From: Planctomycetota bacterium
GTDB taxonomy: Bacteria > Planctomycetota > Planctomycetia > Pirellulales > Pirellulaceae
Assembly: GCA_963204965.1 (NCBI GenBank)
Contig: CAUJKA010000218.1
Span: forward strand, 17,464-81,463
Length of the DNA stretch: 64,000 bases
Direction: 5' to 3'
Shown here: one piece after another, positions 14,475 to 31,385 of the stretch
How the letters are laid out: each line of letters begins with the position of its first letter
Position numbering within the stretch: position 1 is the stretch's first letter
Notes under the pieces: generated by a model
Databases searched by the model: none
What the model was told of the DNA's origin: nothing
What the model saw: the letters and a program-made list of their open reading frames with translations, nothing else
Made by a program: the position numbers and the translations under genes

Positions 14475-14488
14475 CAGAACTGCCCCGC

Positions 14489-14520: not shown

Positions 14521-14522
14521 AC

Positions 14523-14688: not shown

Positions 14689-14720
14689 GGCATGCATTAC
14701 CAATGGCATGCATTACCAAT
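14689..14720. repeat. Perfect 16-bp tandem duplication GGCATGCATTACCAAT x2, bracketed by complementary arms
   Basis: Read directly: 14689-14704 equals 14705-14720. AACGACGG (14683-14690), CCGTCGTT (14731-14738) and CGACGG (14751-14756) could form mutually exclusive hairpins. Confidence 0.9.
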
Positions 14721-15198
14721 CAAGTGCATTCCGTCGTTCATTAAGTAATGCGACGGTTCCAGCAGACTGTGGGACAGGTTGCGGGATGGAATGTGGATCT
14801 TCATCGCCTGCTTTGGCCATTATCTCCGCGGGGCTGTGCAACTACGCCGCCGGGCCAAGTGAACGCTCTGCGAGCCCTAGTGACTTTGGGGTTTTGAGTT
14901 GTCGAACATGCGTTGATGGCCGTGGAAGTTCAGGTTGTAGCGGTTGTAGCAGTGATGACTGGCCTCGAACGAGCTCATACGAAACTTGCGGAAAACACAG
15001 TATCAAATCAGTCCCAAGCTAGTCGCCAAGTAACGCACTCACAGATGTCGGAGTATTTGCTTTGCAATCGAACTGAGCAAGATACGACACCGCGTGCAAC
15101 CGTACGGCCCAACGACCGCCGCGACAAAAGAAAACAACCAGAACGTTTACTGCAGTTTACGAAACGAATGATTCGCTTCACGAGGAAGAGCTGAAAAA

Positions 15199-18100
15199 AT
15201 GCCAAATGCCGGAAATCAGGTACAGCCCATCGCAATTGTTGGAATGGCTTGTCGCTATCCTGGAGAGTTGGAAGATATTCAAAAGCTCTGGGAAGGGCTG
15301 CGCAACAAATACAACGCTATCTCCGAAACGCCACCTGATCGCTGGTCCGCTGATCGTTATTACTCGGCGAACGAAGCTTCTCGAGGCAAAACATATGTTC
15401 GCCGCGGTGGTTATCTGAAGCGCGATCCGCGACTCTTTGACGCGGGATTTTTCGGCATTTCGCCGCGCGACGCAGAGAACATGGATCCGCAGCAACGTTT
15501 AATGCTGGAAGTTACTTGGGAGGCGTTTGAAAACGCAGGTCTCAATCTTCCCGAGCTTGCGCGCCGAAGTGTGGGTGTGTACGTCGGCGGCTTTATGCTG
15601 GACCACATGATCACACAGATGTCGTTTGCCAATCGATCTGCGATCAACCAATACAGCGCAGCGGGCATGATGATGACCATGTTGTCCAATCGTGTCTCCC
15701 ACACGTTTGACTTCCGCGGCCCCAGCCTTTCTATCGATACCGCCTGTTCATCATCACTCGTCGCATTTCACTACGCTTGCCAAGATATTTGGAAGTCGGC
15801 ATGTGAACTGGCCGTTGTTGGTGGCGTCAATGTGATGATGCGGCCCGAGTATCCCATTGGCATGTGCAAAGGCCATTTTCTTGCCAAAGACGGACAGTGC
15901 AAGTCGTTTGATGAACGAGGCGACGGATATGGCCGCGCCGAAGGTGCGGGCGTAGTTTTGCTCAAGCCTCTTTCGAAAGCAATCGAAGACGGCGATGACA
16001 TTTGGGCAACAGTCATTGCAACTGGAACCAATCAAGACGGTCACACTCCAGGTATTTCCATGCCTAACGGTGAGGCTCAAGCAGATTTGATCCGCGAGGT
16101 TTGTAGCAAATACAACGTAGATCCACGTTCGGTTCAATACGTCGAATGCCACGGAACCGGAACGGCTATCGGCGACCCGACCGAAGCTGGCGCAATCGGA
16201 ACGACCTATGGTGTTGGACGAAGCGAAGACAATCGAGTCATCATCGGCACGATCAAGAGCAATCTAGGACACATGGAAGCTGGTGCTGGTGTAGCCGGTA
16301 TCATCAAGGCGACGCTCACGTTACACCATCGAGAGACTTCGCCGCTAGCCAATCTACAAACGCCCAATCCAAACATCAATTTCGATGCCTTGGGTGTGAA
16401 GCTATCCGATGCAAAGTACCAGCTTGTATCTACCGACTCGACTCCAGTTCGCGCCGCGGTCAATTCCTTCGGATACGGCGGATCAAATGCTCACGCCATT
16501 CTTCAAGCCTTCGATCATTCTGTCGAACAGAACTCCGCTCAGCCGCGAAATGGCTTCGTCGGTGCCGACAATTCCGTCGAATCGTTGCCAATGATGTTGC
16601 CAATTACCGGGCGAAGCGTCAACGCGGTCAACGATTTGGCACGCTGCTACTACGAGATGCTCGAAGCAGGCACAAATCTCGACGATCTGATCTACAGCCT
16701 AATCCGCCGTCGCGCGCATTTGACTCAGCGACTCGTTGTGGCCGGACGTAATAGCGAAGATCTCAAAAAGAATCTGAAGGCTGTCCTCGATGGAGAAGTC
16801 GCCGGACAGTTCGCTCGGGGACAAAGTCCATACTCCGGCTCGGGTAAGCCAGTCTTTGTGTTCACTGGCATGGGCCCGCAGTGGTGGGCGATGGGTCAGG
16901 AACTTTACGCTCAAAACTCAGTCTATCGCAACGCAGTTGATAAAGCGGATCGAGTTTTCCAATCGATTGCTGGCTTCTCTGCTTTGGCTGAGATGATGAA
17001 GGACGAGCAAAGTTCGGAAATCACTAAGACTGAATTTGCACAGCCTGCGAACTTCTTGATTCAAATTGGACTCACTGAAGTACTTCGTTCACGCGGCATT
17101 GAACCAGCCGCATGCGTGGGACACTCAGTGGGTGAGCTAGCTTCGGCGTATGTCGCTGGAGTGCTTTCCTTAGAAGACGCGATGACGGTCTGCTACCATC
17201 GAAGCCAACAGCAAGCCAAAGCTCGCGGAGCTGGAAGCATGATCGCTGTTGGAGTCAATCTAGAACGCGCCAAAGAGTTGGTGGCAAACTGTGATGGAGC
17301 CGTTTCGATTGCCGCGATCAATGGTGAGACCAATATCACCTTAGCCGGTGAAACCGAATCAATCGTTGCCATCTCCGAAGAGCTCACTACACAAAACGTC
17401 TTCAATCGATTGTTGGAAGTCGAAGTTCCTTACCACGGTCCAGCTATGGACCCGTTGATGGAGCCATTGGCTTACGATCTCCGTTCGATTCAGCCTAAGC
17501 TTCCAACAATGCAGCTCTATTCGACCGTTACGGGACAACGAGTCGATGGTGTTGCCTATGGAGCAGGTTATTGGCCGAAGAACATTCGTCAGCCTGTCGA
17601 ATTCGTTCAGGCAATCCGCAGCGCGATCAACGACGGGCACACGATCTTCATCGAAGTCGGTCCTCACCCGGTTCTGGCAACGTCATTGAAAGAGTGCATC
17701 CAAAGCTCGGGCAAGGACTGTCGCCAACTTTTCACTCTCCGACGAAAAACCTCGGAAGTGGAAGCCATGGATCGCTCGGTGCTGGAGTACTACGCTTTTG
17801 GTGGACGACTAGCTTGGAATAAGATCATTCGTCCTGGCAAGATCATTGGCTTGCCGAATTACTCTTGGCAACGTGAATTGCTCTGGGTTGAAAACGATCG
17901 CGCGGGACAAGATCGCCGTGAAATTGTGACCCATCCTATCCTAGGTATCCAAGAAGCACCGGCGACGTGCGCCTATCGTAACGATTTCGATTTTGAATCG
18001 GTCAATTACCTTCGCGATCACCAAGTGATGGGGTTGCCGATCCTTCCTGCCGCTGGATACATCGAGGCGTTCATGGAGCTGGCAGGAATTGAGTTTTCGC

Positions 18101-21100
18101 AAAGCCCCGGTTTGGCACTTCGGAACTTTGAAATATCGGCGCCACTCATTCTCAAAGACGATCGCGGTATCGATTTTGTCACCTCTTATGATCCGCTAAC
18201 GCGTAAGATCGTTGGGCGAAGTTTGGACAATGGAAAGCTCGGACCTGGACAAACACATGCTCGAGCTGACGTGGGCGTCGTCTCGGTTGCCGGTGGAAGC
18301 CAATGCGATTTGACGAATTTGAAGAGCTTGATCTCATCGAAGATTGAAACCAAGCAGTTCTATCAGCAACTCTGGGCCATCGGTTTGCAATATGGCCCGG
18401 CTTTTCAAACAGTCTCTGAGCTCTACGTCGCCGACGACAAGATGCAGAGCTTGGCTCGACTGGAGCTCAATCAACTACATGCGAGCTATTTGGACAAATA
18501 CCGCATGCATCCTTCGCTTCTGGACGGATGCTTCCAAACATTGATGGCCATGATCGATACGCAATCGGCGACCTACTTGCCGACAAAGATCGACGAAATC
18601 CGTCTCTATGTTGACAGACTTCCTGAGCAGATCTGGTGTCACGGTCGCTTGCAAGAGATGAATCAGAGGTTCGTCGACTGCCACCTCGATCTTTACGATA
18701 TGGAAGGCAATCTCGTTGCCAGCGTGAAGCGACTTCGCGCCAACGCGGCCGCCAAGCGCCAACGTACGGACAAATGGGGTGACCCAGTCAAGCTACAGAT
18801 TCTCAAGTACATTTGGCAAGTTGGTGAGAACCTTCCTGAACCACGACGCTTAGGTAACTGGATGGTCATTGGTGACCAAGCCGACCTAAGTTCATTGGTG
18901 GTCCAGCAGCTTGAGAATTTCGGTGCGATTGTTGGTGCCCACGTTCGAGCCGGCAATCAACTAGAGTTCGATGGACGCGAAGTCACGCTACGACCTGAAT
19001 CGTTGGAAGATTGGTCTGAGGTTCTCTCGCAACATGATGAAATCGACGGCATTGTCTTTACCTGCACGCTCGATGCATGGCCTCAATCAGATGATCCGAC
19101 GGGGCAGTGGCAATTGCGACGAATTGTTACGGCGCTTCAGGCCTACTTCCGAACCAAGCGCAGCGACACTCCTCGTGTCTATCTGTTAACGCAGTCTGCC
19201 TTCCAAGTCATTCCAAGCGATACAGAACTCAATCCGGCACAAGCTTCGTTCAATGGATTTGCTCGTGTGGCCTTTAACGAGCTTGAAGTGGGGCGCGTTT
19301 CGACCATCGATCTTCCTAGCTCGATCGATCCCGCTAGCTTCGAAGCGCTGATCCAAGAGTTGATCTGTGACGGTGCCGAAGACGAAATCGCGATTCGCGA
19401 TGGTCAGCGTTTCGTTAGCGAATTAGCTTTGACTGAGGATCTAACAAAGGATATCTCTCGAGTTGGTTACTTCGACAAGGACAACCCAATTCTAATTCGT
19501 CCCAGCAATGCTGACAGCGATGTTGGCGTCGTTCGCGTGCTAGCAGACAAGCTTGAAGCCCTAAAGCCGAATCACGTTCGAGTCATGCTGGAAAAGTCGG
19601 CTGTGCCAATCGTCTTCCTTAAGGGAGCGCCTGACGAAATTGTCGAACGACCTTGGATGGAATTTGTCGGGACTATTCTGGAACTCGGTAGCGAAGTTCA
19701 GGGATTAGATGTCGGCTCACGCGTTTGTGGACTTGTACCTGCGGAAACAGCCAGCCACCTTACCGTACCAGCCAAATCCCTACATGTCGTTGAAATTGGT
19801 GCTGACGACAACGCGTCGAAATTGGTCGCTTCCTTGGGTGATCTAACCCGAGTGTCCGCGGCGATCGAGCAGTTGAACTTTGCATCTGGGCAAGTAGCCG
19901 CGATTGAAATCAGCAACATTGGACTTGAACTGGCTGATCAGCTTGAAGAGGCGGGAGTTAAAGTCCTGCTTCTGACGGACGACATCGACTCGGTTGAACC
20001 AGCCGTTCTGGCAACTCGAACAGTCGTACCGATGGATGCTCTGCGTATCGATCAGCTTGTTGCTGAACATACGCATGGCGAAGGCTTTGCAATCTTAGTA
20101 GTTCGAGCCAGTGCTTGGCAGGAAAAGCTTGGCTGGGGACACCTTGCTGTTGGTGGATCGGTGGTAGATATCGACAGCCAGACCAATGATCTTGCACTCT
20201 CGGGCAGCATCGGTTCAGTAATTCGAACTTCGCTAGCCATTCTCGCACACCAACCAGCCTTATTGCGAAGATCGATCTCGCGTGCGATTGATTTGATTCG
20301 GTCAGGTCAGCATCGCGAGTCAGGATACTTCGAGGTCTCGTTAGCGGATATCGCTTGGCAGAAGCTGCCGTTCAGCGATTCCCTAGGAGCTTTGGTTCTA
20401 TCGCTTGAGAAGCTGGATGCCGAGCTACCAGTGATTCAACGCGATGACTTTAGATTCAAGTCCGGTGGCACCTATCTGATCACTGGAGGCTTAGGAGGCT
20501 TTGGGCAACAGACTGCTAAGTGGCTTGTTGACAACGGAGTCACATCGATCGTATTGACTGGCCGAACTGGAGCTGACACACCTAATAAGCAAGCGTTTGT
20601 TAAGGACCTTGAGTCAACTGGGGCGAGCGTTTTTGCGGTTCCGTGCGATGCTTCGGATCGGCGAGCTGTCCGAGCATTGATTGAGAAAATCAATAGCGAG
20701 ACGGCTCCTCTGAAAGGCATCATTCACTCTGCGGCAGCCATCATCGATGAACCTATCGTTGATATTGATCTGAATAACTTGTCGACAGTGATGCGAAACA
20801 AAGCAGATGCTGCATGGATACTTCATGAGGAAACGAAGGATCTTCCCTTAGATCACTTCATCCTCTACTCGTCGGCCGCCAATCTTGTGGGCAATAGTCG
20901 ACAGTCGATTTACAGCGCTGCAAACGGCTTCCTCAACGGACTAGCCCACATGCGACGCCAGATGGGGTTGCCTGGTCTTTCGGTCAATTGGGGTGCGATC
21001 GGCGATGTGGGCATCGTTGCTCGCGATGAGAAGTTGGAGCAGTTTCTCCGCTATGTCGGCTTGAGTGGCATAGAGTCGCGTGAGGCACTTGAGTATCTGA

Positions 21101-21555
21101 AACTGGCCGTTGGTCGCGATGAAACTCAAGTCGGCGTTCTCATTATGAAGTCATGGGCCGACTGGGGACGCTTCGAAGTTCGCGCAGGTACCTCCGCTCG
21201 TTATCAAAAGCTCATCGCCAGCGATGCCAGCGGTGGTGATTCGGCGGCAAAGAATGCGCTTGTGGAAGAGCTTTCCAAATTGCAGCCCGATGAACAGCTG
21301 GAGGTCTTGGTCACTCTGATCACCGATGTGCTGGCCGGAATTCTCAAGACTGACGCGTCGCAGATTCATCCGTCACGTCCTATCAATGAGCTTGGTGTTG
21401 ACTCGTTAATGGCAACCGAGATTCAGATGAGTCTAGAACAAACGCTTGGACTTAAAGTGGCTGTTCTCGAACTGTTGGGCGATTCGACGATCATGTCACT
21501 TGCTAGAAGTTCGCTGACGTCCCTACAGCTAACCAGCCCTATTCCCGTCGGCTAA
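15199..21555 (+). CDS. Single-module, highly reducing type I polyketide synthase: KS-AT-DH-(degenerate ER)-KR-ACP, with no loading or release domain
   Basis: 2118 aa. An AGGAAG lies about 10 nt upstream of ATG 15199.
- KS: DTACSSS (Cys183, 15745-15747), ECHGTGT, GSNAH.
- AT: GHSVGE.
- DH: HPILG, LRDHQVMGLPILPAAG, LQYGPAFQ, LLDGCFQ.
- ER-like fold that lacks the GGVG NADPH loop.
- KR: LITGGLGGFG and SAANLVG...YSAANGF.
- ACP: LGVDSLMATEI (Ser2069, 21403-21405). Confidence 0.95.
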   Translation: MPNAGNQVQPIAIVGMACRYPGELEDIQKLWEGLRNKYNAISETPPDRWSADRYYSANEASRGKTYVRRGGYLKRDPRLFDAGFFGISPRDAENMDPQQRLMLEVTWEAFENAGLNLPELARRSVGVYVGGFMLDHMITQMSFANRSAINQYSAAGMMMTMLSNRVSHTFDFRGPSLSIDTACSSSLVAFHYACQDIWKSACELAVVGGVNVMMRPEYPIGMCKGHFLAKDGQCKSFDERGDGYGRAEGAGVVLLKPLSKAIEDGDDIWATVIATGTNQDGHTPGISMPNGEAQADLIREVCSKYNVDPRSVQYVECHGTGTAIGDPTEAGAIGTTYGVGRSEDNRVIIGTIKSNLGHMEAGAGVAGIIKATLTLHHRETSPLANLQTPNPNINFDALGVKLSDAKYQLVSTDSTPVRAAVNSFGYGGSNAHAILQAFDHSVEQNSAQPRNGFVGADNSVESLPMMLPITGRSVNAVNDLARCYYEMLEAGTNLDDLIYSLIRRRAHLTQRLVVAGRNSEDLKKNLKAVLDGEVAGQFARGQSPYSGSGKPVFVFTGMGPQWWAMGQELYAQNSVYRNAVDKADRVFQSIAGFSALAEMMKDEQSSEITKTEFAQPANFLIQIGLTEVLRSRGIEPAACVGHSVGELASAYVAGVLSLEDAMTVCYHRSQQQAKARGAGSMIAVGVNLERAKELVANCDGAVSIAAINGETNITLAGETESIVAISEELTTQNVFNRLLEVEVPYHGPAMDPLMEPLAYDLRSIQPKLPTMQLYSTVTGQRVDGVAYGAGYWPKNIRQPVEFVQAIRSAINDGHTIFIEVGPHPVLATSLKECIQSSGKDCRQLFTLRRKTSEVEAMDRSVLEYYAFGGRLAWNKIIRPGKIIGLPNYSWQRELLWVENDRAGQDRREIVTHPILGIQEAPATCAYRNDFDFESVNYLRDHQVMGLPILPAAGYIEAFMELAGIEFSQSPGLALRNFEISAPLILKDDRGIDFVTSYDPLTRKIVGRSLDNGKLGPGQTHARADVGVVSVAGGSQCDLTNLKSLISSKIETKQFYQQLWAIGLQYGPAFQTVSELYVADDKMQSLARLELNQLHASYLDKYRMHPSLLDGCFQTLMAMIDTQSATYLPTKIDEIRLYVDRLPEQIWCHGRLQEMNQRFVDCHLDLYDMEGNLVASVKRLRANAAAKRQRTDKWGDPVKLQILKYIWQVGENLPEPRRLGNWMVIGDQADLSSLVVQQLENFGAIVGAHVRAGNQLEFDGREVTLRPESLEDWSEVLSQHDEIDGIVFTCTLDAWPQSDDPTGQWQLRRIVTALQAYFRTKRSDTPRVYLLTQSAFQVIPSDTELNPAQASFNGFARVAFNELEVGRVSTIDLPSSIDPASFEALIQELICDGAEDEIAIRDGQRFVSELALTEDLTKDISRVGYFDKDNPILIRPSNADSDVGVVRVLADKLEALKPNHVRVMLEKSAVPIVFLKGAPDEIVERPWMEFVGTILELGSEVQGLDVGSRVCGLVPAETASHLTVPAKSLHVVEIGADDNASKLVASLGDLTRVSAAIEQLNFASGQVAAIEISNIGLELADQLEEAGVKVLLLTDDIDSVEPAVLATRTVVPMDALRIDQLVAEHTHGEGFAILVVRASAWQEKLGWGHLAVGGSVVDIDSQTNDLALSGSIGSVIRTSLAILAHQPALLRRSISRAIDLIRSGQHRESGYFEVSLADIAWQKLPFSDSLGALVLSLEKLDAELPVIQRDDFRFKSGGTYLITGGLGGFGQQTAKWLVDNGVTSIVLTGRTGADTPNKQAFVKDLESTGASVFAVPCDASDRRAVRALIEKINSETAPLKGIIHSAAAIIDEPIVDIDLNNLSTVMRNKADAAWILHEETKDLPLDHFILYSSAANLVGNSRQSIYSAANGFLNGLAHMRRQMGLPGLSVNWGAIGDVGIVARDEKLEQFLRYVGLSGIESREALEYLKLAVGRDETQVGVLIMKSWADWGRFEVRAGTSARYQKLIASDASGGDSAAKNALVEELSKLQPDEQLEVLVTLITDVLAGILKTDASQIHPSRPINELGVDSLMATEIQMSLEQTLGLKVAVLELLGDSTIMSLARSSLTSLQLTSPIPVG
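15220..16510 (+). other. PKS ketosynthase domain
   Basis: Runs from IAIVGMACRYPG to DTACSSS, ECHGTGT and GYGGSNAHAIL. The Cys-His-His catalytic set is visible. Confidence 0.9.
16850..17720 (+). other. PKS acyltransferase domain
   Basis: Carries VFVFTGMGPQWWAMG, GHSVGELASAYVAG and FIEVGPHPVL. The specificity-motif position reads VPYHGPAM rather than the canonical HAFHS or YASHS. Confidence 0.85.
17900..18760 (+). other. PKS dehydratase domain (all four hallmark motifs present)
   Basis: HPILG, HxxxGxxxxP (DHQVMGLPILP), GYxYGPxF-like (LQYGPAFQ) and DxxxQ (LLDGCFQ) are all present. Confidence 0.8.
19570..20290 (+). other. ER-like (medium-chain dehydrogenase fold) region with the NADPH-binding motif lost
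   Basis: HVRVMLEKSAV...EFVGTILELGSEVQGLDVGSRVCGLVP matches the N-terminal MDR/ER pattern. Where HAAAGGVG is expected, the sequence reads AAIEISNIGLELADQLEEAGVKVLLL (19891-19938). Confidence 0.6.
20460..21150 (+). other. PKS ketoreductase catalytic subdomain
   Basis: Carries GTYLITGGLGGFGQQTAKWL (Rossmann) and SSAANLVGNSRQSIYSAANGFLNGLA (Ser/Tyr/Asn). Confidence 0.85.
21300..21480 (+). other. PKS C-terminal acyl carrier protein domain
   Basis: Carries INELGVDSLMATEIQMSLEQ. The protein ends about 45 aa later with no TE, R or C domain. Confidence 0.9.
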
Positions 21556-21605
21556 TAGTAGGGAATTGATCTTCGATCGTTACTCAAAAATACAAAAAAA
21601 CAAAT

Positions 21606-22961
21606 ATGAGCATTCGAACCAGTATTGATAAACTTCGCGAAAATCTTCTCGCCAATAAGAAAACCGAAGGTAAAGCATCCGAGTCGCCGGATTCGGCGCC
21701 TTCCGTTCCTGCAGTTCCGTTGAGCGATATTCCCTCATCCAGCTACCAATTCGAGCATTTTCCTGAGTACAAGGAATATGCAACGATGATCTGGTATTGC
21801 GATAAGCAAAAGTTTCCACAGAACTTGTTTCAGCCTCACCTGGGCTCGTCAGATGCTACCGTTCAAATCAACGGCAGCACCTACATCAACTTCTCGACTT
21901 ACAACTACTTGGCACTTGGTTCCCACGAACGAGTTAAGAATGCCGCGATTGAAGCAGTCAAGACATATGGCGTCGGCACTGGATCGGGGCGTTCAATCAC
22001 TGGTGAGATTAGCCTTCACAGCGACTTCGAGCGAGAGATCAGCGAGGCTCTTGGTACCGAAGACGCTGTACTCTCTGTGGGTGGCTACAGCACCAACACT
22101 TTCACGATCGGATACCTTTGCCGCAACCAAGACTTGATTCTTTATGACGAGCTGATTCACAACTCGGCGTTGGCTGGATGCAAAATGACCGGCGCGCGTC
22201 GATTCAGCTTTCCACATAACGACTACGACGCGCTAGCCAAGCTGTTGGAGATTCATCGAGGCAAATTCGAACGCGTTCTGATTTTGGTCGAAGGCGTTTA
22301 CAGCATGGACGGCGACATTCCTGATGTCCCCAAGCTGATTGAGATTAAGAATAAATACAAAGCGACTTTGATGGTCGACGAAGCTCACTCGATGGGCGTT
22401 ATCGGTCCCAATGGCCTTGGCGTCTGCGACTACTTCGGAATCAAGGGATCCGAAATTGACATCCTTTATGGATCGCTGAGCAAGTCGTTTGGAACATGCG
22501 GAGGTTATGTCGCTGGTCCTAAGCCATTGATCGCGATTCTAAAGCACTATGCTCCAGGCGTTTTGCTGTACGGTGCCTCACCGACGCCAGCGAATGCAGC
22601 CGCTGCACTTGAGTCGCTGCGGATGATGCGCGAACATCCAGAATTGGCTCAACGACTTCAACAAAACGCCGCCTACTTTATTGAACGAGCCCAAGCTGCA
22701 GGACTTGATACTTATCACAGCAAGGACTCGGGGGTGGTGCCGATCATGATGCGAGACTCGGAACTGGCCCTATGGCTTTCCATGAAGCTCTGGGAGTCCC
22801 GGATTTGCAGCTATCCAATGATGCATCCGATAGTCCCTCGCGACAAAACGCGACTGCGATTCTTCCTCAATGTGAATCACACTCGCGAGCAGATCGATCA
22901 CACGATCGACGTCATCACCAGTAGTTTGCGAGTGGCTCCAAAGTCCAAAGGTCTTTTCTAG
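21606..22961 (+). CDS. Alpha-oxoamine synthase family PLP enzyme (SPT / BioF / KBL / CqsA-like acyl-thioester:amino-acid C-acyltransferase)
   Basis: Class-II aminotransferase fold with NFSTYNYLAL, SGRSITGE, MVDEAHSMG and the PLP-lysine motif GSLSKSFGTCGGYVAG (Lys293, 22482-22484). It has an N-terminal extension of about 70 aa. Confidence 0.9.
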   Translation: MSIRTSIDKLRENLLANKKTEGKASESPDSAPSVPAVPLSDIPSSSYQFEHFPEYKEYATMIWYCDKQKFPQNLFQPHLGSSDATVQINGSTYINFSTYNYLALGSHERVKNAAIEAVKTYGVGTGSGRSITGEISLHSDFEREISEALGTEDAVLSVGGYSTNTFTIGYLCRNQDLILYDELIHNSALAGCKMTGARRFSFPHNDYDALAKLLEIHRGKFERVLILVEGVYSMDGDIPDVPKLIEIKNKYKATLMVDEAHSMGVIGPNGLGVCDYFGIKGSEIDILYGSLSKSFGTCGGYVAGPKPLIAILKHYAPGVLLYGASPTPANAAAALESLRMMREHPELAQRLQQNAAYFIERAQAAGLDTYHSKDSGVVPIMMRDSELALWLSMKLWESRICSYPMMHPIVPRDKTRLRFFLNVNHTREQIDHTIDVITSSLRVAPKSKGLF

Positions 22962-23022
22962 TGTTGACGCTTGGCCAAATGATACGCCCCTTTCAACTGG
23001 CAGATAAATTCGAGAGACGCCG

Positions 23023-24036: not shown

Positions 24037-26696
24037 TGCAACAACATTTGGGATCGAAGTCTGAAGCGGCAGCCGCTCAGGATTCTCCTGCGACAGGTAT
24101 TCAGTTTCAATTTGAGCTGAGTAAGCAAGTAGGCGAACCGGTAGAGGTTGCTCACGGAGTATGGTGGATTCGTTTACCGATAGATTCCTCGTTGGACTTT
24201 GTGAATGTCTACGCGTTGCGTGATGGCAATCGATTGACCCTGGTTGATGTAGGTGTCAACAGTGCTTCCAGCATTGCTGCCTTAGATGCGGCTTTAGCGT
24301 CGCCTACACTGGCACAATTGCCGCTCAAACGAGTTATCGTCACTCACTTTCATCCCGACCATATTGGTGCGGCAGGCATTTTGGCTCAACGCGGCATCGA
24401 GCTTTGGATGTCACGCACATGTTGGCTTTCTTGCAAGTTGCTCCTGCAAACGGCCGCGAGTGCGCCGAAGACTCCTGAAGTCGAGTTCATGCGTCGAGCA
24501 GGCCTGTCGGGAATCGAACTAGAAGCCTACAAGCGACAACCGCCTCACCGCTACCAGAAGCAAGTCGCAGCTCTTCCCGACGATTTTGTACCGCTATCCG
24601 ATGGCCAGCACCTGACAATTGGTGATCGTAGTTGGAAGATACTCGTAGGTAATGGTCACGCCGCTGAACATCTAACGCTTTGGAGCGATGGCTTGGCGAT
24701 TGTCGGCGATCAGATTCTCCCTAGCATTTCCAGTAACCTGACAATCCCATTCACCGAACCCGAAGGCGACTTGGTCGCGGAGTGGTTGCTGAGCTGTCAG
24801 AAGCTATTGACCGTTGCCGACAACCAAATTCTAGGTTTGCCAGGGCATCAGCGACCGTTTACAGGTTTACAAAATCGACTGGTCCAAATTCAAAGCAACA
24901 TGGAAGGTGCAATGGAGCGATTGTCCAAGATCTTGGTTCGTCCAAGTTCAGCACTGGAGTGCATGGAGCAGTTTCACAATCGATCATTGACTTTTGATCA
25001 ACGCAAACAGATGCTCCCCGAGATCGTCGGATTCCTGAATCACCTTTATCGCAAAGGCGATGTAGAACGAAAGCAGTCTCCACAAGGCTCCTTTGTCTAC
25101 ACACGCAAACGCAACACGTTAGTCGAACTCTCCACTTCGCATCCAACGAAGGAAGATAAAATGAACTCTCCCATATTGCCTTCCAACACCCCGCCGACTG
25201 CGGTACAGTCGGCGCCGGAAGCTGTTGAGTCCACAGCGCAAGCCTTACCAGAGGCCGTCACTCCCGTTGCAGTTACTTCCACGCAGCAATTTTCAAGCGA
25301 GTCCGTCGCATCCAAGGCCAACACCTCTTGGCTTCAGCCGAAACGCTGGATAGCTGCTCTCAGCTTGGTTGGAATTCTTGGCGCTTGTTACGCCTATCGC
25401 GATCAGCTTCAAGTCTGGGGTAACGAAGCGTTCGATAAGCTCTCGCAAATTCAGCTTTTGGAAAAGCCTCAATCGGTCCGACAGGAACTCAGCACAACAG
25501 TCATGCCTGTTCAGGTAATGACCCTGAAGAACTTGTCGAGCACTGAATTGCCGCGTCGCTTCACTGGAGTCATTAAGCCCCGACGTGCCAGTGAGATTGG
25601 CTTTAATCGCGTCGGCACGATGGATGAGATTTTGGTTGAACGCGGCCAGCGAGTTGAAAAGGATGCGGTATTGGCCAAGTTGAATGTTGCATCGCTGCAA
25701 GCCAACATGAAAGCAGTTCAGGCACAATACAAAGCAGCAACGGCACGACTGGAAGAGATGATCGCTGGTCCGCGCTCTCAAACAATCGATTCGGCTAGAA
25801 ATCAATTCGATGCTGCAAGGGCAGAACTGGACTTGGCTAAGACCTCGTTGGGCCGAGCCGAGCGACTGGTCAGCATCGGGGCCGTTTCTAAGCAAGAGGT
25901 CGACAACGCTCAGACTATGGTCAAAGCGAAGCAAGAAGCTGTCAACGCGGCAGAGAATACATTGAACGAATTGAAGGAGGGCACCCGAACAGAACAAATT
26001 CGGGCACAACGAGCCGTACTGAACGAATTGGAAGCTGCTCAAGATCAAATGAAGGTACAGCTTGATGAAAGTGTGATTCGCGCGCCTTTTGCAGCGGCTG
26101 TGTCTGAGCGATTCCTTGATCCGGGTACAGTGTGCTCGCCTGGAGTTCCTGTGGTGCGATTGATCGAATTGGTCTCGCCTGAAGTCTGGATTGGTCTACC
26201 GCCGGAGTATTCCGCGGCAATGAATCAAAGCAATTCGTACTCGATCAAAGTCAATGGTCAGAGTTTTGATGCGAAGCTCAAGAGCGTTCTACCCGAGCTG
26301 GATAGTGGCACACGAACTAACACGGTAGTCTTCGAACTGGAGACGTCGGACAGCAATTCAATTTTTGGTCAAGTTGCTGAGATCGAGCTTTCTCGTCCTA
26401 TTCGTGAAAGTGGTTTCTGGCTGCCTATGTCAGCAATCGTCAAGGGAGATCATGGACTCTGGGGAGTGTTGGTCCTAGAAAAAGATCCAGAGAGTGGTAA
26501 CTCCAGATTGGTCAAGCAAGAGCTGGAAGTGGTTCACGTCGATTCCGACCGCGTTTATGCGCGTGGAACTATTGCCGATGGCGAACGAGTCGTAGCGACT
26601 GGGTTGCAGCGTTTGACGCCGGGCCAATTGGTGCGAGCGTTGGGTACCGATGATGGTCAACAAGTTGGTGTCAACGACGACGCCACGCTTCGCTAA
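24036..26696 (+). CDS. Fusion protein: N-terminal metallo-beta-lactamase-fold hydrolase, TM helix, then C-terminal RND/HlyD-type periplasmic adaptor (membrane fusion protein)
   Basis: The GTG start at 24036 overlaps the TAG of the previous gene. The MBL motif is THFHPDHIGAAG (HxHxDH at 24345-24362), followed by GHAAEH and LPGHQRPF. A P/T/A/S linker leads to the TM helix WIAALSLVGILGACYAY (25347-25397). The MFP part has lipoyl, coiled-coil and beta-barrel regions. An in-frame internal ATG at 25161 is preceded by GAAGGAAG. Confidence 0.8.
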   Translation: MQQHLGSKSEAAAAQDSPATGIQFQFELSKQVGEPVEVAHGVWWIRLPIDSSLDFVNVYALRDGNRLTLVDVGVNSASSIAALDAALASPTLAQLPLKRVIVTHFHPDHIGAAGILAQRGIELWMSRTCWLSCKLLLQTAASAPKTPEVEFMRRAGLSGIELEAYKRQPPHRYQKQVAALPDDFVPLSDGQHLTIGDRSWKILVGNGHAAEHLTLWSDGLAIVGDQILPSISSNLTIPFTEPEGDLVAEWLLSCQKLLTVADNQILGLPGHQRPFTGLQNRLVQIQSNMEGAMERLSKILVRPSSALECMEQFHNRSLTFDQRKQMLPEIVGFLNHLYRKGDVERKQSPQGSFVYTRKRNTLVELSTSHPTKEDKMNSPILPSNTPPTAVQSAPEAVESTAQALPEAVTPVAVTSTQQFSSESVASKANTSWLQPKRWIAALSLVGILGACYAYRDQLQVWGNEAFDKLSQIQLLEKPQSVRQELSTTVMPVQVMTLKNLSSTELPRRFTGVIKPRRASEIGFNRVGTMDEILVERGQRVEKDAVLAKLNVASLQANMKAVQAQYKAATARLEEMIAGPRSQTIDSARNQFDAARAELDLAKTSLGRAERLVSIGAVSKQEVDNAQTMVKAKQEAVNAAENTLNELKEGTRTEQIRAQRAVLNELEAAQDQMKVQLDESVIRAPFAAAVSERFLDPGTVCSPGVPVVRLIELVSPEVWIGLPPEYSAAMNQSNSYSIKVNGQSFDAKLKSVLPELDSGTRTNTVVFELETSDSNSIFGQVAEIELSRPIRESGFWLPMSAIVKGDHGLWGVLVLEKDPESGNSRLVKQELEVVHVDSDRVYARGTIADGERVVATGLQRLTPGQLVRALGTDDGQQVGVNDDATLR

Positions 26697-26723
26697 TACG
26701 AATCAATTGCAAGAGAGACTTCC

Positions 26724-29700
26724 ATGATTACCCAGTGGTTCGTTACCAATCCTCGTCTGCTCGTGATGACTATCGTTCTGATTGTTGTCGCTGGCGTAAC
26801 GTCCTTTATCGCTCTGCCGCGAATGGAAGATCCCATTCTGACGGCGCGATTCGCTATTGTTACCACAGTGTTTCCCGGTGCATCGCCTGATAGAGTCGAA
26901 GCACTCGTTTCCAAAGGACTCGAGCAACAGCTCATCGATATCAAGGAAATTCGTGAAACCACGTCGATCAGCCGCACAGGCGTCTCAGTTTTGGTTATCG
27001 AACTCAATGAAGAGCTCAAGAAGGACCAGGTCGCCACAACTTGGGGCGTGATTCGCGAACGACTCAACGCCGCGCACGGAGTTATGCCAGAATTGGTGAT
27101 GAAGCCCAAGCTCAGAGAGCTGGATGCTAAGGCGAACGTGATGTTGGTGGCGGTTCGTTGGGACAGCCAAAGCGAACCTAGCTACTCCATTCTTCGACGT
27201 CTTGCCAAGCGATTGCAGGAACGCATCGACCTGATCCAAGGTACAGAAAAAACCTCACTCTTTGGCGATCCCGAAGAGGAATTCCTTGTCGAAGTTCAGC
27301 GAGAGAAAGCCAACAGTCTAGGTCTGAGTGCTTTTCAAATCTCCCAAATGATTTCTGGGAACGATACCAAGTTGCCAGCGGGTCGAGTCCAAGGGGCAAC
27401 CTCGGGGCTGACGCTTGAAGTGGTTGGAAACCTGGATACGAAGACTCGACTCAGCCATTTGCCAATTCGTCGAGATGTCTCGGGATCGATTGTCGAACTT
27501 GGCGATATCGCAACGGTGTCGCGAGCTACACCGGACCCTGCTCCTGCAAAAGCTTTTGCCAGTGGTAAAGCAGCAATCGTTGTTGGAGCTCAGCTGCAAG
27601 ATTCGTATCGTATCGACCATTGGCGAACCGATGCGGCCAAAACTCTGAAGGAGTTCGAAGCTGAACTGCCATCGGGAGTTGGGCTCGATGTGATGTTCGA
27701 TCAGGCTCCGTATGTCAGCGAGCGATTTGTCTCCTTGGAGCAGAACTTTTTGATGGGGTTAGTGTCCGTCTTCATCTGCACCGTGATTTGGATGAACCTT
27801 CGCAGTGCGATTATCGTTGGGGCTATGTTGCCCTTGAACTGCCTGCTCATTCTCCCAATCTTACTTGTGTTCGATATTCCGCTGCATCAAATGTCGGTTA
27901 GCGGTTTGGTCATCGCGATGGGAATGTTGGTAGATAACGCCATTGTTGTGGTCGATCACATCGAGCATAAGGTATCGCATGGCGACTCGGTCCTTGATGC
28001 CGCGCTAGACAGTTCAAAGTACCTTACCGTGCCCTTGTTGGGAGCAACGCTTACAACGGTCTTCTCATTCGCACCCATTGCGTTAATGCCTGGCGCGACC
28101 GGTGAATTCGTTGGCTCGATTGCCATGGTGACGATCATCACGGTAAGTCTGTCTTACTTTCTAGCACTGTCGGTAATTCCTGGTATTAGCTTGCTGGTAT
28201 TCAAGCCATCCAAGAAGAAAGCCAACTGGCTGACTAATCCCTTTCGCATTTCTGAGAACATCTATCGGCTTTTGCTGAGAGGACTACTTCGTTTTCCACT
28301 GTTCGGAGCACTCCTAACGGCTTCGACGGGAATTGCGGGGTTGTTTTTTGTTTTTGTACTGGAAGATCAATTCTTTCCGCCCGCCGATCGCGATCAATTC
28401 CATATCGAAGTAGATCTTGCGGCAAACGCATCAATGGCTGAGACGCAGCAACTGGCAGCCGACATTCGAAAGATTGCCTTGGACGATGAAGCTATAGAAG
28501 AAGTCCATTGGTTCATCGGCGAGAGTGCTCCTGTTTTCTACTACAACGTAGCCACAGTTCGGTCTAATCAGCCCAGTTATGGGCAAGCTATTGTGAAGTG
28601 CCGCAGCGCCAGCGTTGCCAGAGCAGCCATGTTGCGATTACAGCCCAAGTTAGTCGAGAAATTCCCACAGGCCAACATCTCGGTCCGACAACTTGAGCAG
28701 GGACCACCGTTCACCGCTCCAATTGAAGTTCGCGTGACAGGGCCAGACATCGAACGATTGAAGTCACTGGCTGCTAAGGTTCGCTTGGTATTGGGTGGCA
28801 CGCCCGGAATTACCCATACTCGCTGCGATCTGGAAGAGATCGCAACCAAGGCTCGCGTCAACATCGACCAAACTGCCTCGTATGTTGCTGGTTATGACCT
28901 TTCAACCATTGCAATGTCGTTGAACAGTTCCTTGGACGGGATCGTGGGCGGATCGATTCTGGAGGGGACCGAAGAGATTCCAGTCCGCGTTCGCATGGCC
29001 AGTAACCAACGTGGTGATCTAAATGAGATCGTGTCGTTAGAGCTGCAGGCTCAAGGTCGCGGGGAAGCCTTCCGGCATCAAGGGATTCCTCTATCAGCAA
29101 TCGCTAATCTTTCGCTATCATCGGATGTGGGATCGATTGTTCGCGTGAACCGCGTTCGTTGCGCCGATGTGCACGGCTTTCTGCCTGCTGGCGTACTTCC
29201 GTCCGTAGTTCAAAAAGAGTTTAAGGAACGGCTTGCAAAGTCGGATTTCGAATTGCCAACAGGATATCGAGTTCAGTATCTGGGAGCAGCCGGAGAGCAG
29301 CAACAAGCCTTGGGGAACCTAACCGTTTATGCCACAGTCATGGGCGCTGCATTGGTCGCTACACTGGTGCTAAGTCTCAATTCATTTCGGATGGCAGGCT
29401 TGGTCGGAATGGTCAGCCTTTTGAGCGTAGGATACAGTCTGATGTCACTAGGCTTGTTGAACCTACCATTCGGCTTCATGGCTATCATCGGTATCGTGGG
29501 CATGTTGGGTGTTGCCGTTAATGATTCAATCTTGATTGTCACATCAATTGCTCTGGATTCTAAAGGAAGTCGAGGCGATAAAAAGCAGATCATCGAAATC
29601 CTGGTGGAGAATTCGCGGCACGTACTTGTAACTAGTATTACGACAATTGCCGGGTTCTTGCCTCTTTACCTTAGCGGCGGAGACTTTTGGCCGCCGACTG

Positions 29701-29828
29701 CTGTGTGTGTTTCGATGGGTGTGGCTGGGTCTACTTTTCTAGCTTTGTTCTTCGTGCCATGTGCGTTCATCGTATTGAACCGCTGGCCATCAGTTAAACT
29801 CTTTCGTCAATCTGGCGAGTCCAAATAA
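26724..29828 (+). CDS. RND-superfamily efflux permease (AcrB/AcrD/AcrF-like)
   Basis: 1034 aa. The N-terminus MITQWFVTNPRLLVMTIVLIVVAGVTSFIALPRMEDP is typical of RND pumps. Two large periplasmic loops alternate with two TM bundles. It sits directly after the MFP. Confidence 0.9.
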   Translation: MITQWFVTNPRLLVMTIVLIVVAGVTSFIALPRMEDPILTARFAIVTTVFPGASPDRVEALVSKGLEQQLIDIKEIRETTSISRTGVSVLVIELNEELKKDQVATTWGVIRERLNAAHGVMPELVMKPKLRELDAKANVMLVAVRWDSQSEPSYSILRRLAKRLQERIDLIQGTEKTSLFGDPEEEFLVEVQREKANSLGLSAFQISQMISGNDTKLPAGRVQGATSGLTLEVVGNLDTKTRLSHLPIRRDVSGSIVELGDIATVSRATPDPAPAKAFASGKAAIVVGAQLQDSYRIDHWRTDAAKTLKEFEAELPSGVGLDVMFDQAPYVSERFVSLEQNFLMGLVSVFICTVIWMNLRSAIIVGAMLPLNCLLILPILLVFDIPLHQMSVSGLVIAMGMLVDNAIVVVDHIEHKVSHGDSVLDAALDSSKYLTVPLLGATLTTVFSFAPIALMPGATGEFVGSIAMVTIITVSLSYFLALSVIPGISLLVFKPSKKKANWLTNPFRISENIYRLLLRGLLRFPLFGALLTASTGIAGLFFVFVLEDQFFPPADRDQFHIEVDLAANASMAETQQLAADIRKIALDDEAIEEVHWFIGESAPVFYYNVATVRSNQPSYGQAIVKCRSASVARAAMLRLQPKLVEKFPQANISVRQLEQGPPFTAPIEVRVTGPDIERLKSLAAKVRLVLGGTPGITHTRCDLEEIATKARVNIDQTASYVAGYDLSTIAMSLNSSLDGIVGGSILEGTEEIPVRVRMASNQRGDLNEIVSLELQAQGRGEAFRHQGIPLSAIANLSLSSDVGSIVRVNRVRCADVHGFLPAGVLPSVVQKEFKERLAKSDFELPTGYRVQYLGAAGEQQQALGNLTVYATVMGAALVATLVLSLNSFRMAGLVGMVSLLSVGYSLMSLGLLNLPFGFMAIIGIVGMLGVAVNDSILIVTSIALDSKGSRGDKKQIIEILVENSRHVLVTSITTIAGFLPLYLSGGDFWPPTAVCVSMGVAGSTFLALFFVPCAFIVLNRWPSVKLFRQSGESK

Positions 29829-31385
29829 ATGATCAAAATACAGCCTACTGAAAACTATGATGCCATCGTGATTGGGTCAGGAATTGGCGGTATGACCGTC
29901 GCCAGCCTGTTGACTCAACTTGGCAAAAAGCGAGTGCTCTTACTTGAACGCCACTTTAAGTTGGGAGGGTACACCCATGCGTTTCGACGTGGCAAGTACG
30001 AGTGGGATGTTGGTGTGCACTACATCGGCGAAATGCATGCTGACAAGCTTTGTCGACGCGTGATGGATTTAGTCACCAATAGCCAAGTCCTTTGGCATCG
30101 CTGTGGACCAATCGTCGAGCGATTTCATTTTCCCGAAGGCACTTTTGAAGTACCCGATGATCCAGCTAAGTTTAAAGAGCGACTCATCGAGCGATTTCCA
30201 GAGGAACGCGAGAACATCATTCGTTATTTTCGAGATGTGAAACGCTGCCAAAGCTGGTTCGCACGATTTTTCATGTCGAAAATGCTGCCGCCTTTTCTCG
30301 CCAAGCTACTGACGCTCCCGGGGCGGCGATTGGCTGAAACCGTAACGGCTGATTATCTTGAGAATTTCAGTTCGCAATTCCTTAAGGGCATCCTTACCGC
30401 ACAATGGCCCGACTTTGGTGCTCCGCCGGAGGAAAGTGCGTTTGCATTTCACTCTGCTGTGACGGCAGACTTCTTTCATGGTTCGTTTTATCCCTTAGGC
30501 GGTTCCGCTGTTATTGCTGAATCGGTAGAGAAGATCGTGAACGATGGCGGTGGAGCCTGTTTGGTCAATCATGATGTTCAAGAGATCATCGTAGAGAATG
30601 GAAAAGCGGTCGGTGTGCGCGCTACGCACAAGAATCGAGAGGTCGTGTTTCGCGCTCCAGTAATCGTTTCTAACGCCAATTCGATTGCGACCTTTGGCAA
30701 GTTTGTTCCAGAGGGATACTGCAAAGCGGAGAAGGAACAGGCGAAGCGAGTCAAGCACGGAACTTCGGCTATGGCACTGTTTATCGGACTCAAGGATGAT
30801 CCTCGCAATCATGGTTTTGACGATGCCAACTACTGGTTCTATTCAAGCTCGGATCATGACAGTCAACCCTCGAAGACTCATCCATATGGGGTTCACGGAG
30901 GCTATCTATCGTTCGGTTCACTTCGCAACCCTGGCATGCAGGCCCACACGGCACAAATCGTGACTTTCAGCCAATATGACTTGTGGAAGCAATTCGCCGA
31001 CAGTCCCTGGAAACGCCGCGGCGAAGAATACGAGAAGCTCAAAGCGGAAATGACGGAGAAGATACTCCAATTCGCCGAGCGTTATGTGCCCCAGTTAAGG
31101 TCAATTATTGACTACGTCGAATTATCAACACCTGTAACGTTTGAGACATTTTCGGGACATCCTTCGGGAATGGTGTACGGGCAAATGGCCGATCCAAATC
31201 GTCTAAATCGCGATCAATGGCGGATTTCGACCAGCTTGCCCAATCTCTATCTCGCCGGAAGCGACATTGGTTCACCTGGCGTCAATGGTTCCCTAATGGC
31301 TTCGGTGTTTACAGCAGTCAAACTTTTGGGACCTTCCGCCTTCCTGAAGATCTTTGGGTCCGATAAACCTAAAAAAACGCCGTAA
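29829..31385 (+). CDS. FAD-dependent oxidoreductase of the phytoene desaturase (CrtI) / retinol saturase-like family
   Basis: The dinucleotide-binding motif is YDAIVIGSGIGGMTVASLL...LLLERHFKLGGY. WDVGVHYIGEM and the C-terminal LYLAGSDIGSPGVNG are also present. The ATG abuts the RND stop (TAAATG). Confidence 0.85.
   Translation: MIKIQPTENYDAIVIGSGIGGMTVASLLTQLGKKRVLLLERHFKLGGYTHAFRRGKYEWDVGVHYIGEMHADKLCRRVMDLVTNSQVLWHRCGPIVERFHFPEGTFEVPDDPAKFKERLIERFPEERENIIRYFRDVKRCQSWFARFFMSKMLPPFLAKLLTLPGRRLAETVTADYLENFSSQFLKGILTAQWPDFGAPPEESAFAFHSAVTADFFHGSFYPLGGSAVIAESVEKIVNDGGGACLVNHDVQEIIVENGKAVGVRATHKNREVVFRAPVIVSNANSIATFGKFVPEGYCKAEKEQAKRVKHGTSAMALFIGLKDDPRNHGFDDANYWFYSSSDHDSQPSKTHPYGVHGGYLSFGSLRNPGMQAHTAQIVTFSQYDLWKQFADSPWKRRGEEYEKLKAEMTEKILQFAERYVPQLRSIIDYVELSTPVTFETFSGHPSGMVYGQMADPNRLNRDQWRISTSLPNLYLAGSDIGSPGVNGSLMASVFTAVKLLGPSAFLKIFGSDKPKKTP

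Follow-up and report, generated by a model that had tools for sequence, protein, structure and literature searches.

This work concerns a 64-kb window (the whole stretch of 64,000 nucleotides analyzed here, positions 17,464 to 81,463 of contig CAUJKA010000218.1 from a planctomycete of the family Pirellulaceae) and, within it, six adjacent genes that probably serve, as a whole and including the export step, for the biosynthesis and export of a long-chain nitrogen-containing (sphingoid-base-like) lipid. The genes encode a type I polyketide synthase (PKS), an alpha-oxoamine synthase (AOS), a trans-acting enoyl reductase (ER), a metallo-beta-lactamase-fold (MBL) hydrolase joined in one open reading frame (ORF) to a membrane-fusion protein (MFP), a resistance-nodulation-division (RND) permease and a CrtI-like flavoprotein. 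We are more confident of one part of this reading, namely that a long-chain amino-ketone lipid is the joint product of the PKS, ER and AOS, and have low confidence in any specific reaction of the MBL hydrolase or the flavoprotein.

Off-loading of the polyketide chain by the AOS was supported by the absence of a release domain from the PKS together with an intact AOS gene adjacent to it, by PKS::AOS fusions in other bacteria, and by the PfSgaAB system of Pseudomonas. Pfam and NCBIfam models identified neither a loading domain nor a thioesterase (TE), reductase (R) or condensation (C) release domain in the PKS. A scan of 185,579 species genomes for the AOS gave 77 loci (L numbers below), onto which the six window proteins were mapped and in which all ORFs were clustered. 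These included two PKS::AOS fusions. In a Parachlamydiales metagenome-assembled genome (MAG; L040 37-6999, + strand) a single protein has the order ketosynthase (KS), dehydratase (DH), ketoreductase (KR), acyl carrier protein (ACP) and AOS, with no acyltransferase (AT) detected and a gene for a reductase of the medium-chain dehydrogenase/reductase (MDR) superfamily preceding it, and in a Myxococcales MAG (L071 4490-11278, + strand) the order is KS-AT-KR-DH-AOS. Both are in favor of the AOS acting last and releasing the chain.

The bacterial precedent comes from Pseudomonas fluorescens MYb115, in which an iterative PKS (PfSgaA) and an AOS (PfSgaB), the latter a serine-specific serine palmitoyltransferase (SPT), lead to C24-C28 sphinganines and phosphoglycerol sphingolipids, a KDSR-like short-chain dehydrogenase/reductase (SDR; SgaC) being encoded nearby (Peters et al., Nat Commun 2025, PMC12134224). 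That study counted 6,101 homologous clusters, mostly from Burkholderia and two labelled Planctomycetaceae, so that the view taken in the initial annotation of this DNA (by a model, from the sequence), that the combination of PKS and AOS is mostly fungal, is outdated. The window shares with PfSgaAB a stand-alone AOS gene placed directly after the gene of a monomodular, probably iterative type I PKS that lacks a release domain, and in 16 of 16 orthologous loci the AOS likewise follows a TE-less monomodular reducing PKS. As in PfSgaAB, the AOS is predicted to join a long acyl chain and an amino acid into a 3-keto long-chain base, and it has in common with PfSgaB an N-terminal extension and a Ser-Lys motif for pyridoxal phosphate (PLP). 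The window differs from PfSgaAB in the degenerate ER of its PKS and the ever-present MECR-like ER acting in trans, in adding a conserved MBL hydrolase, a CrtI-like flavoprotein and a linked RND pump, and in its planctomycete host. The domain architecture of PfSgaA is absent from the text and supplements of PMC12134224.

Organization and conservation of the gene cluster

The six ORFs are co-directional on the + strand of window positions 15199-31385 (Table 1) with junctions, in order, of 50, 61, -1, 27 and 0 nt, the GTG start of the fourth overlapping the preceding stop. The initial annotation had described the same operon-like layout with the same coordinates, and its domain calls agreed with the content assigned to all six ORFs by Pfam and NCBIfam. 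Base composition is even throughout the block. A scan for consensus promoters and terminators gave site counts at or below shuffle expectation and nothing within the intergenic gaps and was uninformative; co-transcription of the six genes is therefore inferred from spacing and synteny.

Table 1. Genes of the cluster and domains of the PKS and of the MBL::MFP fusion (window coordinates).
Feature	Position	Strand	Size or residues	Basis
Monomodular reducing type I PKS	15199-21555	+	2118 aa	Pfam/NCBIfam, motifs
KS	15223-16506	+	residues 9-436	Active-site Cys in DTACSS; HGTGT
AT	16852-17778	+	residues 552-860	GHSVG, FabD-like VPYH
DH	17932-18762	+	residues 912-1188	HxxxGxxxxP (HPILGIQEAP), DxxxQ (DGCFQ)
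ER0, putative degenerate enoyl-reductase-fold domain	19411-20469	+	residues ~1405-1757	hhalign, conservation
KR	20467-21003	+	residues 1757-1935	NADPH motif GGLGGFG, catalytic Tyr/Asn (YSAAN) intact
ACP	21319-21507	+	residues 2041-2103	Phosphopantetheine site GVDSL
AOS	21606-22961	+	451 aa	Pfam/NCBIfam, PDB search, residue alignment
Trans-acting MDR enoyl-thioester reductase, MECR/Etr1-like	23023-24036	+	337 aa	PDB matches
MBL::MFP fusion	24036-26696	+	886 aa	Lactamase_B and RND membrane-fusion protein in one ORF
Cytoplasmic MBL-fold metallo-hydrolase domain (predicted)	24036-25115	+	residues 1-360 of fusion	Lactamase_B, metal ligands
Low-complexity Pro/Ala/Ser/Thr linker with one hydrophobic membrane anchor	25116-25400	+	anchor at residues ~437-455	Sequence inspection
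Periplasmic RND membrane-fusion (adaptor) domain	25401-26696	+		TIGR01730, 160 bits (cut-off 94.9)
RND inner-membrane permease, AcrB family	26724-29828	+	1034 aa	PF00873, 445 bits
CrtI/RetSat-like FAD flavoprotein	29829-31385	+	518 aa	Pfam/NCBIfam, fold match

Orthologous loci, defined by an AOS identity of at least 64%, were found in Pirellulales MAGs and isolates, in two Phormidesmis cyanobacteria and in one Pseudomonadota MAG. The Pirellulales isolates are Neorhodopirellula pilleata Pla100 and Brakhagea baltica, the present name of strain SH449, and protein searches added Rosistilla, Stieleria, Rubripirellula, Mariniblastus and Granulosicoccus. The order PKS-AOS-ER was kept in all 16 orthologous loci compared, and genes for the MBL hydrolase and the flavoprotein were present in the same order in 14 of the 16, a conservation of the PKS-AOS-ER-MBL-flavoprotein set that by far exceeds what chance would give. 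Neither the MBL hydrolase nor the flavoprotein occurs without the other, and in the lineage of L078 the two form one protein (P0213, 889 aa); the L078 locus reads PKS-AOS-ER-MBL::flavoprotein and has no pump. In the initial annotation these two conserved partners had been under-weighted. The MBL::MFP and MBL::flavoprotein fusions tie the MBL hydrolase, the flavoprotein and the pump together. As a separate observation, the PKS of L078 (1179-7560) was called as two genes of 1686 aa, ending past the region of the structural ketoreductase (psi-KR), and 456 aa (KR-ACP), with an overlap of ~50 nt, which represents either a real split or an assembly frameshift.

The same data bear on the suggestion that the six genes are merely adjacent, with PKS-AOS-ER as the biosynthetic part and MBL::MFP, RND permease and flavoprotein as an unrelated detoxification or efflux unit. 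The pump does vary across relatives and RND pumps are generic; however, the MBL and flavoprotein genes follow PKS-AOS-ER in a fixed order, the pump where present is inserted between those two, both kinds of MBL fusion exist, and two of the junctions overlap or abut (-1 and 0 nt). We consider chance adjacency very improbable.

The export genes were more variable, and the dedicated MFP/RND pair that the initial annotation saw in them proved in relatives to be lacking, to lie elsewhere or to give way to exporters of other types. An RND permease gene was present in 10 of the 16 loci, and insertion of MFP and RND genes between the MBL and flavoprotein genes was seen in closer relatives only. The pump was missing in L007-L010 and L013 (L007 has an RND-like gene elsewhere, on the opposite strand and with no MFP), and in L014 and L015 the pump genes lie upstream on the opposite strand. 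L016 and L017 have PKS-AOS-ER without any MBL hydrolase or flavoprotein. L017, from Pseudomonas danubii (AOS identity 53%), has the order SDR-PKS-AOS-ER-MacB-type ABC-LolA-like (L017 2403-3227 and 12353-15130), L016 has PKS-AOS-ER-MMPL-LolA-like (L016 12933-16045), and L019, from a Methylobacter, has PKS-AOS-MMPL (L019 11481-13823). The possibility that L017 is the published SgaAB cluster was ruled out, as the primers of that paper were unmatched and identity to PfSgaB was 42%. Three exporter types are linked to PKS-AOS(-ER), namely RND/MFP, MacB-type ABC with a LolA-like protein, and MMPL with or without a LolA-like protein, and the MFP/RND pump is an interchangeable accessory, not a core component. 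That three unrelated lipid-export systems accompany the same chemistry argues for a hydrophobic product that is moved towards the envelope.

A coupling of this kind resembles the mycobacterial Pks2-MmpL8 (sulfolipid) and Mas-MmpL7 (phthiocerol dimycocerosate) systems, in which an iterative MAS-like reducing PKS is likewise coupled to an RND-superfamily lipid exporter, and MMPL transporters such as theirs occur in relatives L016 and L019. The mycobacterial systems differ in using a methylmalonyl extender and PapA-type acyltransferase release, where the window is predicted to use malonyl units and the AOS.

The exporters also bear on the suggestion that the product is a diffusible quorum-sensing signal, an alpha-hydroxyketone or amino-ketone resembling CAI-1 or LAI-1 and secreted by the pump. 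CqsA and LqsA do belong to the AOS family, an efflux pump is present, and a Ser/Thr kinase gene adjoins the cluster in five loci. Nevertheless, the CqsA/LqsA model NF005526 was the weakest match of the AOS among the AOS subfamilies (152 bits, cut-off 428), a 2118-aa reducing PKS with a trans-acting ER implies long chains, relatives encode lipid-trafficking proteins of MMPL and LolA-like type and in many cases dispense with the pump, and no CqsS/LqsS-type sensor was seen in the flanks. We regard a signal of this type as having only a slight chance of being correct. The long-chain 2-amino-3-keto sphingoid-like lipid named as product class in the initial annotation agrees with PfSgaAB and with the PKS::AOS fusions, but its CAI-1-like option is the least supported, given the weak CqsA match and the lipid-type exporters.

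A PKS with a degenerate ER domain and a predicted ER in trans

The PKS has the architecture KS-AT-DH-psiKR-ER0-KR-ACP, in which the catalytic motifs of the KS, AT, DH, KR and ACP are all intact. By motif rules (GHSVG with VPYH), the AT is predicted to use a malonyl extender. The NCBIfam Pks2 model spans the full protein with 861 bits, below its equivalog cut-off of 2400, and ranked second after PKS_plus_SDR. Between the DH and KR, ~570 residues received no confident Pfam assignment; their first part is the psi-KR, and the remaining ~350 residues occupy the position of the ER in KS-AT-DH-ER-KR-ACP synthases. Across 16 orthologues this latter stretch (ER0) is constant in length and is the least conserved region of the PKS, with ~30% identity versus 60-70% for the KS and KR of the same pairs. 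When its profile was compared by hhalign with that of the trans-ER family, the match had a probability of 96.9% and an E value of 1.7e-10 over 287 columns. There was no GxGxxG-type nucleotide-binding motif in PKS residues 1190-1757, and searches of Pfam and the PDB returned no ER match for the ER0 region. The most consistent interpretation is that ER0 is an inactive remnant of the ER fold, and on that point the initial annotation, correct as to the missing TE, R and C domains, should read "inactive ER" in place of "no ER".

A degenerate ER domain in the PKS explains the separate MECR-like enoyl reductase, which the initial annotation had also recognized. The best PDB matches of this enzyme were human MECR (142 bits) and yeast Etr1, and its gene was found in 16 of 16 orthologous loci. 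The cluster therefore combines an ER-fold domain without a nucleotide-binding motif with an adjacent MDR reductase, the arrangement expected of a PKS of the ER0 type with an ER in trans. A similar division of labor is known for LovB/LovC, the lovastatin nonaketide synthase with an inactive ER and its trans-acting enoyl reductase (PMC7870829). The likeness, a non-functional ER-fold domain in the PKS and a separate, adjacent reductase of the MDR superfamily, is an analogy of mechanism only, as LovB/LovC, a fungal system, differs in its C-terminal condensation-like domain, its product and its release route.

The alpha-oxoamine synthase

The AOS is a fold-type I PLP enzyme (Aminotran_1_2; PF00155, 161 bits) of the BioF/KBL/SPT type. 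Its PLP-lysine motif is GSLSKSFG, as noted in the initial annotation. When it was aligned with the SPT of Sphingobacterium multivorum (SmSPT), PfSgaB (sequence taken from Fig. S6 of PMC12134224) and Escherichia coli BioF and Kbl, His185, Asp258, His261, Lys293 and Arg418 were invariant, which comprise the catalytic set of the family: the PLP-stacking His, Asp-x-x-His, the Schiff-base Lys and the carboxylate-binding Arg. The residue preceding the lysine is Ser, as in SPTs, whereas it is Gly in BioF and Kbl. The best solved homologue was SmSPT (226 bits); BioF/KBL enzymes and eukaryotic SPT2 came next. That SmSPT was the best PDB match and that the Ser-Lys motif is present are weak hints of serine use.

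In a neighbor-joining (NJ) tree the clade that holds the window AOS coincides with the PKS-AOS-trans-ER arrangement; the tree was built without bootstraps and from a sparse set of references, and what it says of clades is indicative only. Taken together, residues and tree indicate a true AOS that is competent for catalysis and belongs to a lineage of its own. Members of the PKS-linked clade also have a conserved C-terminal tail, VAPKSKGLF or similar (window 22932-22958, residues 443-451; same position in L003, L007 and L017), that is absent from PfSgaB, SmSPT, BioF and Kbl. This clade-specific tail may be a docking element for the ACP of the PKS.

Assignment of the AOS by the cut-offs of curated NCBIfam subfamily models was attempted and dropped, as the verified SPT PfSgaB fails them too. 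The scores of the window AOS against the SPT equivalogs NF047600 (CFB-SPT), NF047599 and NF047603 were 282, 250 and 187 bits (cut-offs 640, 500 and 670), and those of PfSgaB, used as a control, were 269, 243 and 185 bits. Against the bioF model the window AOS scored 317 bits (cut-off 426), and its neighbors are the cluster genes, with no bio genes. Since PfSgaB also fails, these cut-offs cannot decide the chemistry of the AOS and do not exclude an SPT.

The MBL hydrolase, its fusion to the RND adaptor, and chain release

The metal ligands of the MBL domain (HxHxDH type: H104, H106, D108, H109, H208, D225 and H271) are intact, as an alignment to 5U8O also showed, and are invariant in 31 homologues. 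No signal peptide was found in the MBL part of the fusion, and the protein is predicted to be a cytoplasmic hydrolase tethered to a periplasmic adaptor. MBL and MFP form a single frame in seven genomes and are two overlapping genes in two others. The AlphaFold model of the MBL domain has a pLDDT (predicted local distance difference test) score of ~91, and the nearest structures are uncharacterised Burkholderia proteins (5U8O, 6AO1 and 5I0P; TM score 0.85), with more distant relationships to LACTB2, a paraoxonase and PqsE.

MBL-type thioesterases release the products of TE-less PKSs in fungi and in NFAT-133 biosynthesis (PMC4591646, PMC10265476). By analogy, the MBL hydrolase could itself be the chain-releasing thioesterase, freeing a fatty or polyenoic acid, with the AOS acting on another acyl-CoA or on the re-activated acid. 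The intact metal ligands and the distant fold resemblance to the thioesterase PqsE are in keeping with this suggestion, although the PqsE match is weak (TM 0.54) and the closest structures are those of uncharacterised proteins. L016 and L017, however, have PKS-AOS-ER without an MBL hydrolase, so release needs none; the AOS is fused directly after the ACP in L040 and forms the C-terminus of the L071 PKS; the PfSgaAB pathway works without an MBL hydrolase (PMC12134224); and no acyl-CoA ligase is encoded in the cluster. Release by the MBL hydrolase is accordingly improbable in our estimation, and release by the AOS is retained below.

The CrtI-like flavoprotein and the fate of the amino-ketone

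The flavoprotein belongs to the Amino_oxidase/CrtI family (PF01593). It scored 95 bits against TIGR02734 (cut-off 238) and 128 against CrtISO (cut-off 587), and its homologues are named RetSat or phytoene-desaturase-like by their sources. The closest fold to its AlphaFold model (pLDDT 90.9) is that of the carotenoid desaturase 4REP (TM 0.74), followed by CrtI 4DGK, while flavin amine oxidases are further away (TM ~0.6). No carotenoid genes were found near the flavoprotein gene. The fold match favors (de)saturation or isomerisation of a C-C bond over amine oxidation, without proving it, and a role in setting the saturation of the chain is a conjecture. Fold searches were also tried as a way to assign reactions to both enzymes and were set aside, because the neighbors of the MBL domain are uncharacterised and the flavoprotein maps only to the CrtI/CrtD fold. 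Separately, Phormidesmis priestleyi (L007) has two CrtI-like flavoprotein paralogues back to back, at 13879-15576 (+) and 15633-17261 (-).

An alternative that has to be weighed more seriously is that the amino-ketone is an intermediate, which the flavoprotein and the MBL hydrolase convert into another class of compound, such as a pyrazine- or pyrroline-type N-heterocycle, an alpha-diketone or a polyunsaturated amino-lipid, the product then being a specialised metabolite and not an analogue of membrane sphingolipids. Consistent with this, the cluster encodes no ketoreductase, CerS or CerR, the two enzymes are strictly coupled and even fused, L017, which has neither, has an SDR, suggesting alternative tailoring routes, the flavoprotein has some likeness to the amine-oxidase fold, and the AOS clade is divergent from verified SPTs. 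Conversely, the flavoprotein is structurally nearest to carotenoid C-C desaturases and not to amine oxidases, the linked exporters (MMPL, LolA-like, RND) are of lipid type, and no cyclase or further tailoring genes are conserved. On balance, we judge such a conversion unlikely, albeit the most credible of the alternatives considered.

Proposed pathway and points against it

In the proposed pathway to an exported sphingoid-base-like lipid, the single-module PKS would iterate with malonyl units, and the MECR-like reductase would reduce the enoyl intermediates in trans, the PKS's own ER being dead, in the manner of LovB/LovC. The result would be an ACP-bound long acyl chain that is largely saturated. 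The AOS would condense a small amino acid with this acyl-ACP thioester by a decarboxylative Claisen reaction, serine being the leading candidate, and this off-loading would free a 2-amino-3-oxo long-chain base. The MBL hydrolase and the flavoprotein may then act together on the chain or the head group, the most plausible role of the flavoprotein being to introduce, remove or isomerise a C=C bond and that of the MBL hydrolase a hydrolytic step (thioester or ester editing, or maturation) at the inner membrane. The MFP/RND pump would carry the lipid from the inner membrane towards the envelope, with the MBL hydrolase on the cytoplasmic end of the adaptor. Iterative action, chain length, the amino-acid substrate, the reactions of the MBL hydrolase and flavoprotein, and the final location of the product are all presumptive parts of this scheme; the parts observed directly are the layout of the genes, the integrity of the domains, the ER remnant, the conserved synteny, the fusions and the exchange of lipid exporters among relatives.

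Several observations weigh against this reading. The window AOS is not an orthologue of PfSgaB by the measures used: it is only 40% identical to it, and in the NJ tree the window AOS, its orthologues and those of L016 and L017 form a clade apart from PfSgaB, which itself shares 52-58% identity with a large set of stand-alone AOSs from planctomycetes. The low identity and the separate clade leave serine specificity and a true sphingoid product presumptive. The AOS is also below every curated NCBIfam cut-off for an AOS subfamily. Neither the six genes nor their immediate flanks encode a KDSR-like SDR, unlike PfSgaAB(C), and the window lacks a ceramide synthase and CerR; the SDR of L017 could be the missing 3-ketoreductase. 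The potential of MBL enzymes for chain release, discussed above, is a further point. Of the tripartite RND set, the window has the permease and the adaptor, and no gene for an outer-membrane factor (OEP/TolC) anywhere in its 64 kb; a TolC-like OEP gene adjoins the cluster in seven related loci. Finally, the predictions are based on sequences and models.

Relation to other known pathways

In the fungal pathways to sphinganine analogues (fumonisin with Fum1/Fum8, AAL toxin, sphingofungin and myriocin), an AOS off-loads the product of a highly reducing iterative PKS. The window resembles them in that an AOS-family enzyme and an amino acid would give a 2-amino-3-keto polyketide. In contrast, the fungal clusters have a cis-acting ER, a methyltransferase, P450s, an SDR (Fum13) and genes for tricarballylic esters, none of which the window has, and the MBL hydrolase, CrtI-like enzyme and RND pump have no counterpart in the fungal clusters.

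The canonical bacterial pathway (Spt, bCerS and CerR) also begins with an AOS-family enzyme that makes the first committed amino-ketone, but its acyl donor comes from fatty-acid synthesis (as CoA or small ACP thioester) and not from a PKS, and bCerS and CerR are absent in the window. Spt-like genes were reported in 138 Planctomycetota MAGs from the Black Sea, and Planctomycetota were predicted to be sphingolipid producers (PMC11334938). In our scan, many Planctomycetota MAGs encoded a stand-alone AOS of the group nearer to PfSgaB than the window AOS is (L027, L036, L039, L042, L046, L052, L057, L066 and others, at ~10001-11250 in each). These lone enzymes could serve canonical sphingolipid synthesis in Planctomycetota.

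A literature search found nothing on this exact gene combination. A 2013 catalogue of AOS domains in assembly lines includes one in Blastopirellula, a 2025 review of Planctomycetota does not mention sphingolipids and names no monomodular type I PKS with an assigned product, and the paper describing strain SH449 gives no more than a count of type I PKS clusters. Within the literature searched, the statement of the initial annotation that no such product or pathway has been characterised in planctomycetes holds.

Flanking genes

The genes that flank the cluster are unrelated to it, which marks the six-gene block as discrete. Upstream are a PolX-type DNA polymerase with a PHP domain (12635-14392, -) and a fused ABC ATPase and ABC-2 permease (9024-11330, +), neither of them conserved along with the cluster, and downstream is a Ser/Thr kinase with TPR repeats (31510-34536, -). 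Just upstream of the cluster there is a strong terminator-like hairpin (14538-14567, -) with a 13-bp stem, eight G-C pairs and a T-rich tail, which sits inside a small unannotated ORF (14325-14693) without a Pfam match.

Planctomycetes encode many Ser/Thr kinases of this kind. In addition to the window, such a gene lies directly beside the cluster in L003 (1391-3169, -), L011 (19780-21309), L035 (19872-21329) and L078 (1-641), five of the loci examined in all, and the kinase of L078 is fused to an extracytoplasmic function (ECF) sigma-factor domain. The adjacent kinase may be a dedicated regulator, or the adjacency may be due to chance.

Beyond the kinase gene, a giant ORF of 7079 aa (34540-55779, -) has MBG (four), PKD and RTX repeats in its C-terminal half, while its N-terminal 3533 aa gave no Pfam match. 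It looks like a surface or adhesin-type protein and no megasynthase, and an extension of the cluster into this repeat protein was rejected.

Significance

Bacterial synthesis of sphingolipids by a PKS and an AOS is already known from PfSgaAB (2025). What appears to be new here is the distinct AOS clade, the ER-dead PKS with its ER in trans, the absence of a ketoreductase, the coupled MBL/CrtI-like pair and the hydrolase-adaptor fusion. More tentatively, and as a less likely reading, the core may represent an undescribed Pirellulales pathway whose product would be an exported envelope amino-lipid of a new class, shared with some cyanobacteria and Proteobacteria by horizontal transfer, in which the divergent AOS would use an amino acid other than serine or yield an amino-ketone that is not reduced, the MBL/CrtI-like pair would perform an unprecedented tailoring, and the tether between hydrolase and adaptor would couple maturation to export.

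Orphan biosynthetic clusters are numerous in the large genomes of planctomycetes, assigned products are very few, and almost no lipid natural products are known. The cluster family is kept in cultured, tractable strains, including N. pilleata Pla100, B. baltica SH449 and species of Rosistilla and Stieleria. The pathway would add a new phylum and a new enzyme set to the PKS route by which bacteria make sphingoid lipids, and would be a bacterial case in which an ER in trans rescues an ER-dead PKS, alongside a strictly coupled MBL/CrtI-like enzyme pair. The joining of a cytoplasmic enzyme and an RND adaptor in one protein is rare and suggests that maturation and export may be coupled. An exported amino-lipid of marine Pirellulales, Phormidesmis and Proteobacteria could matter in biofilm or host-surface interactions, as the sphingolipids of Pseudomonas do.

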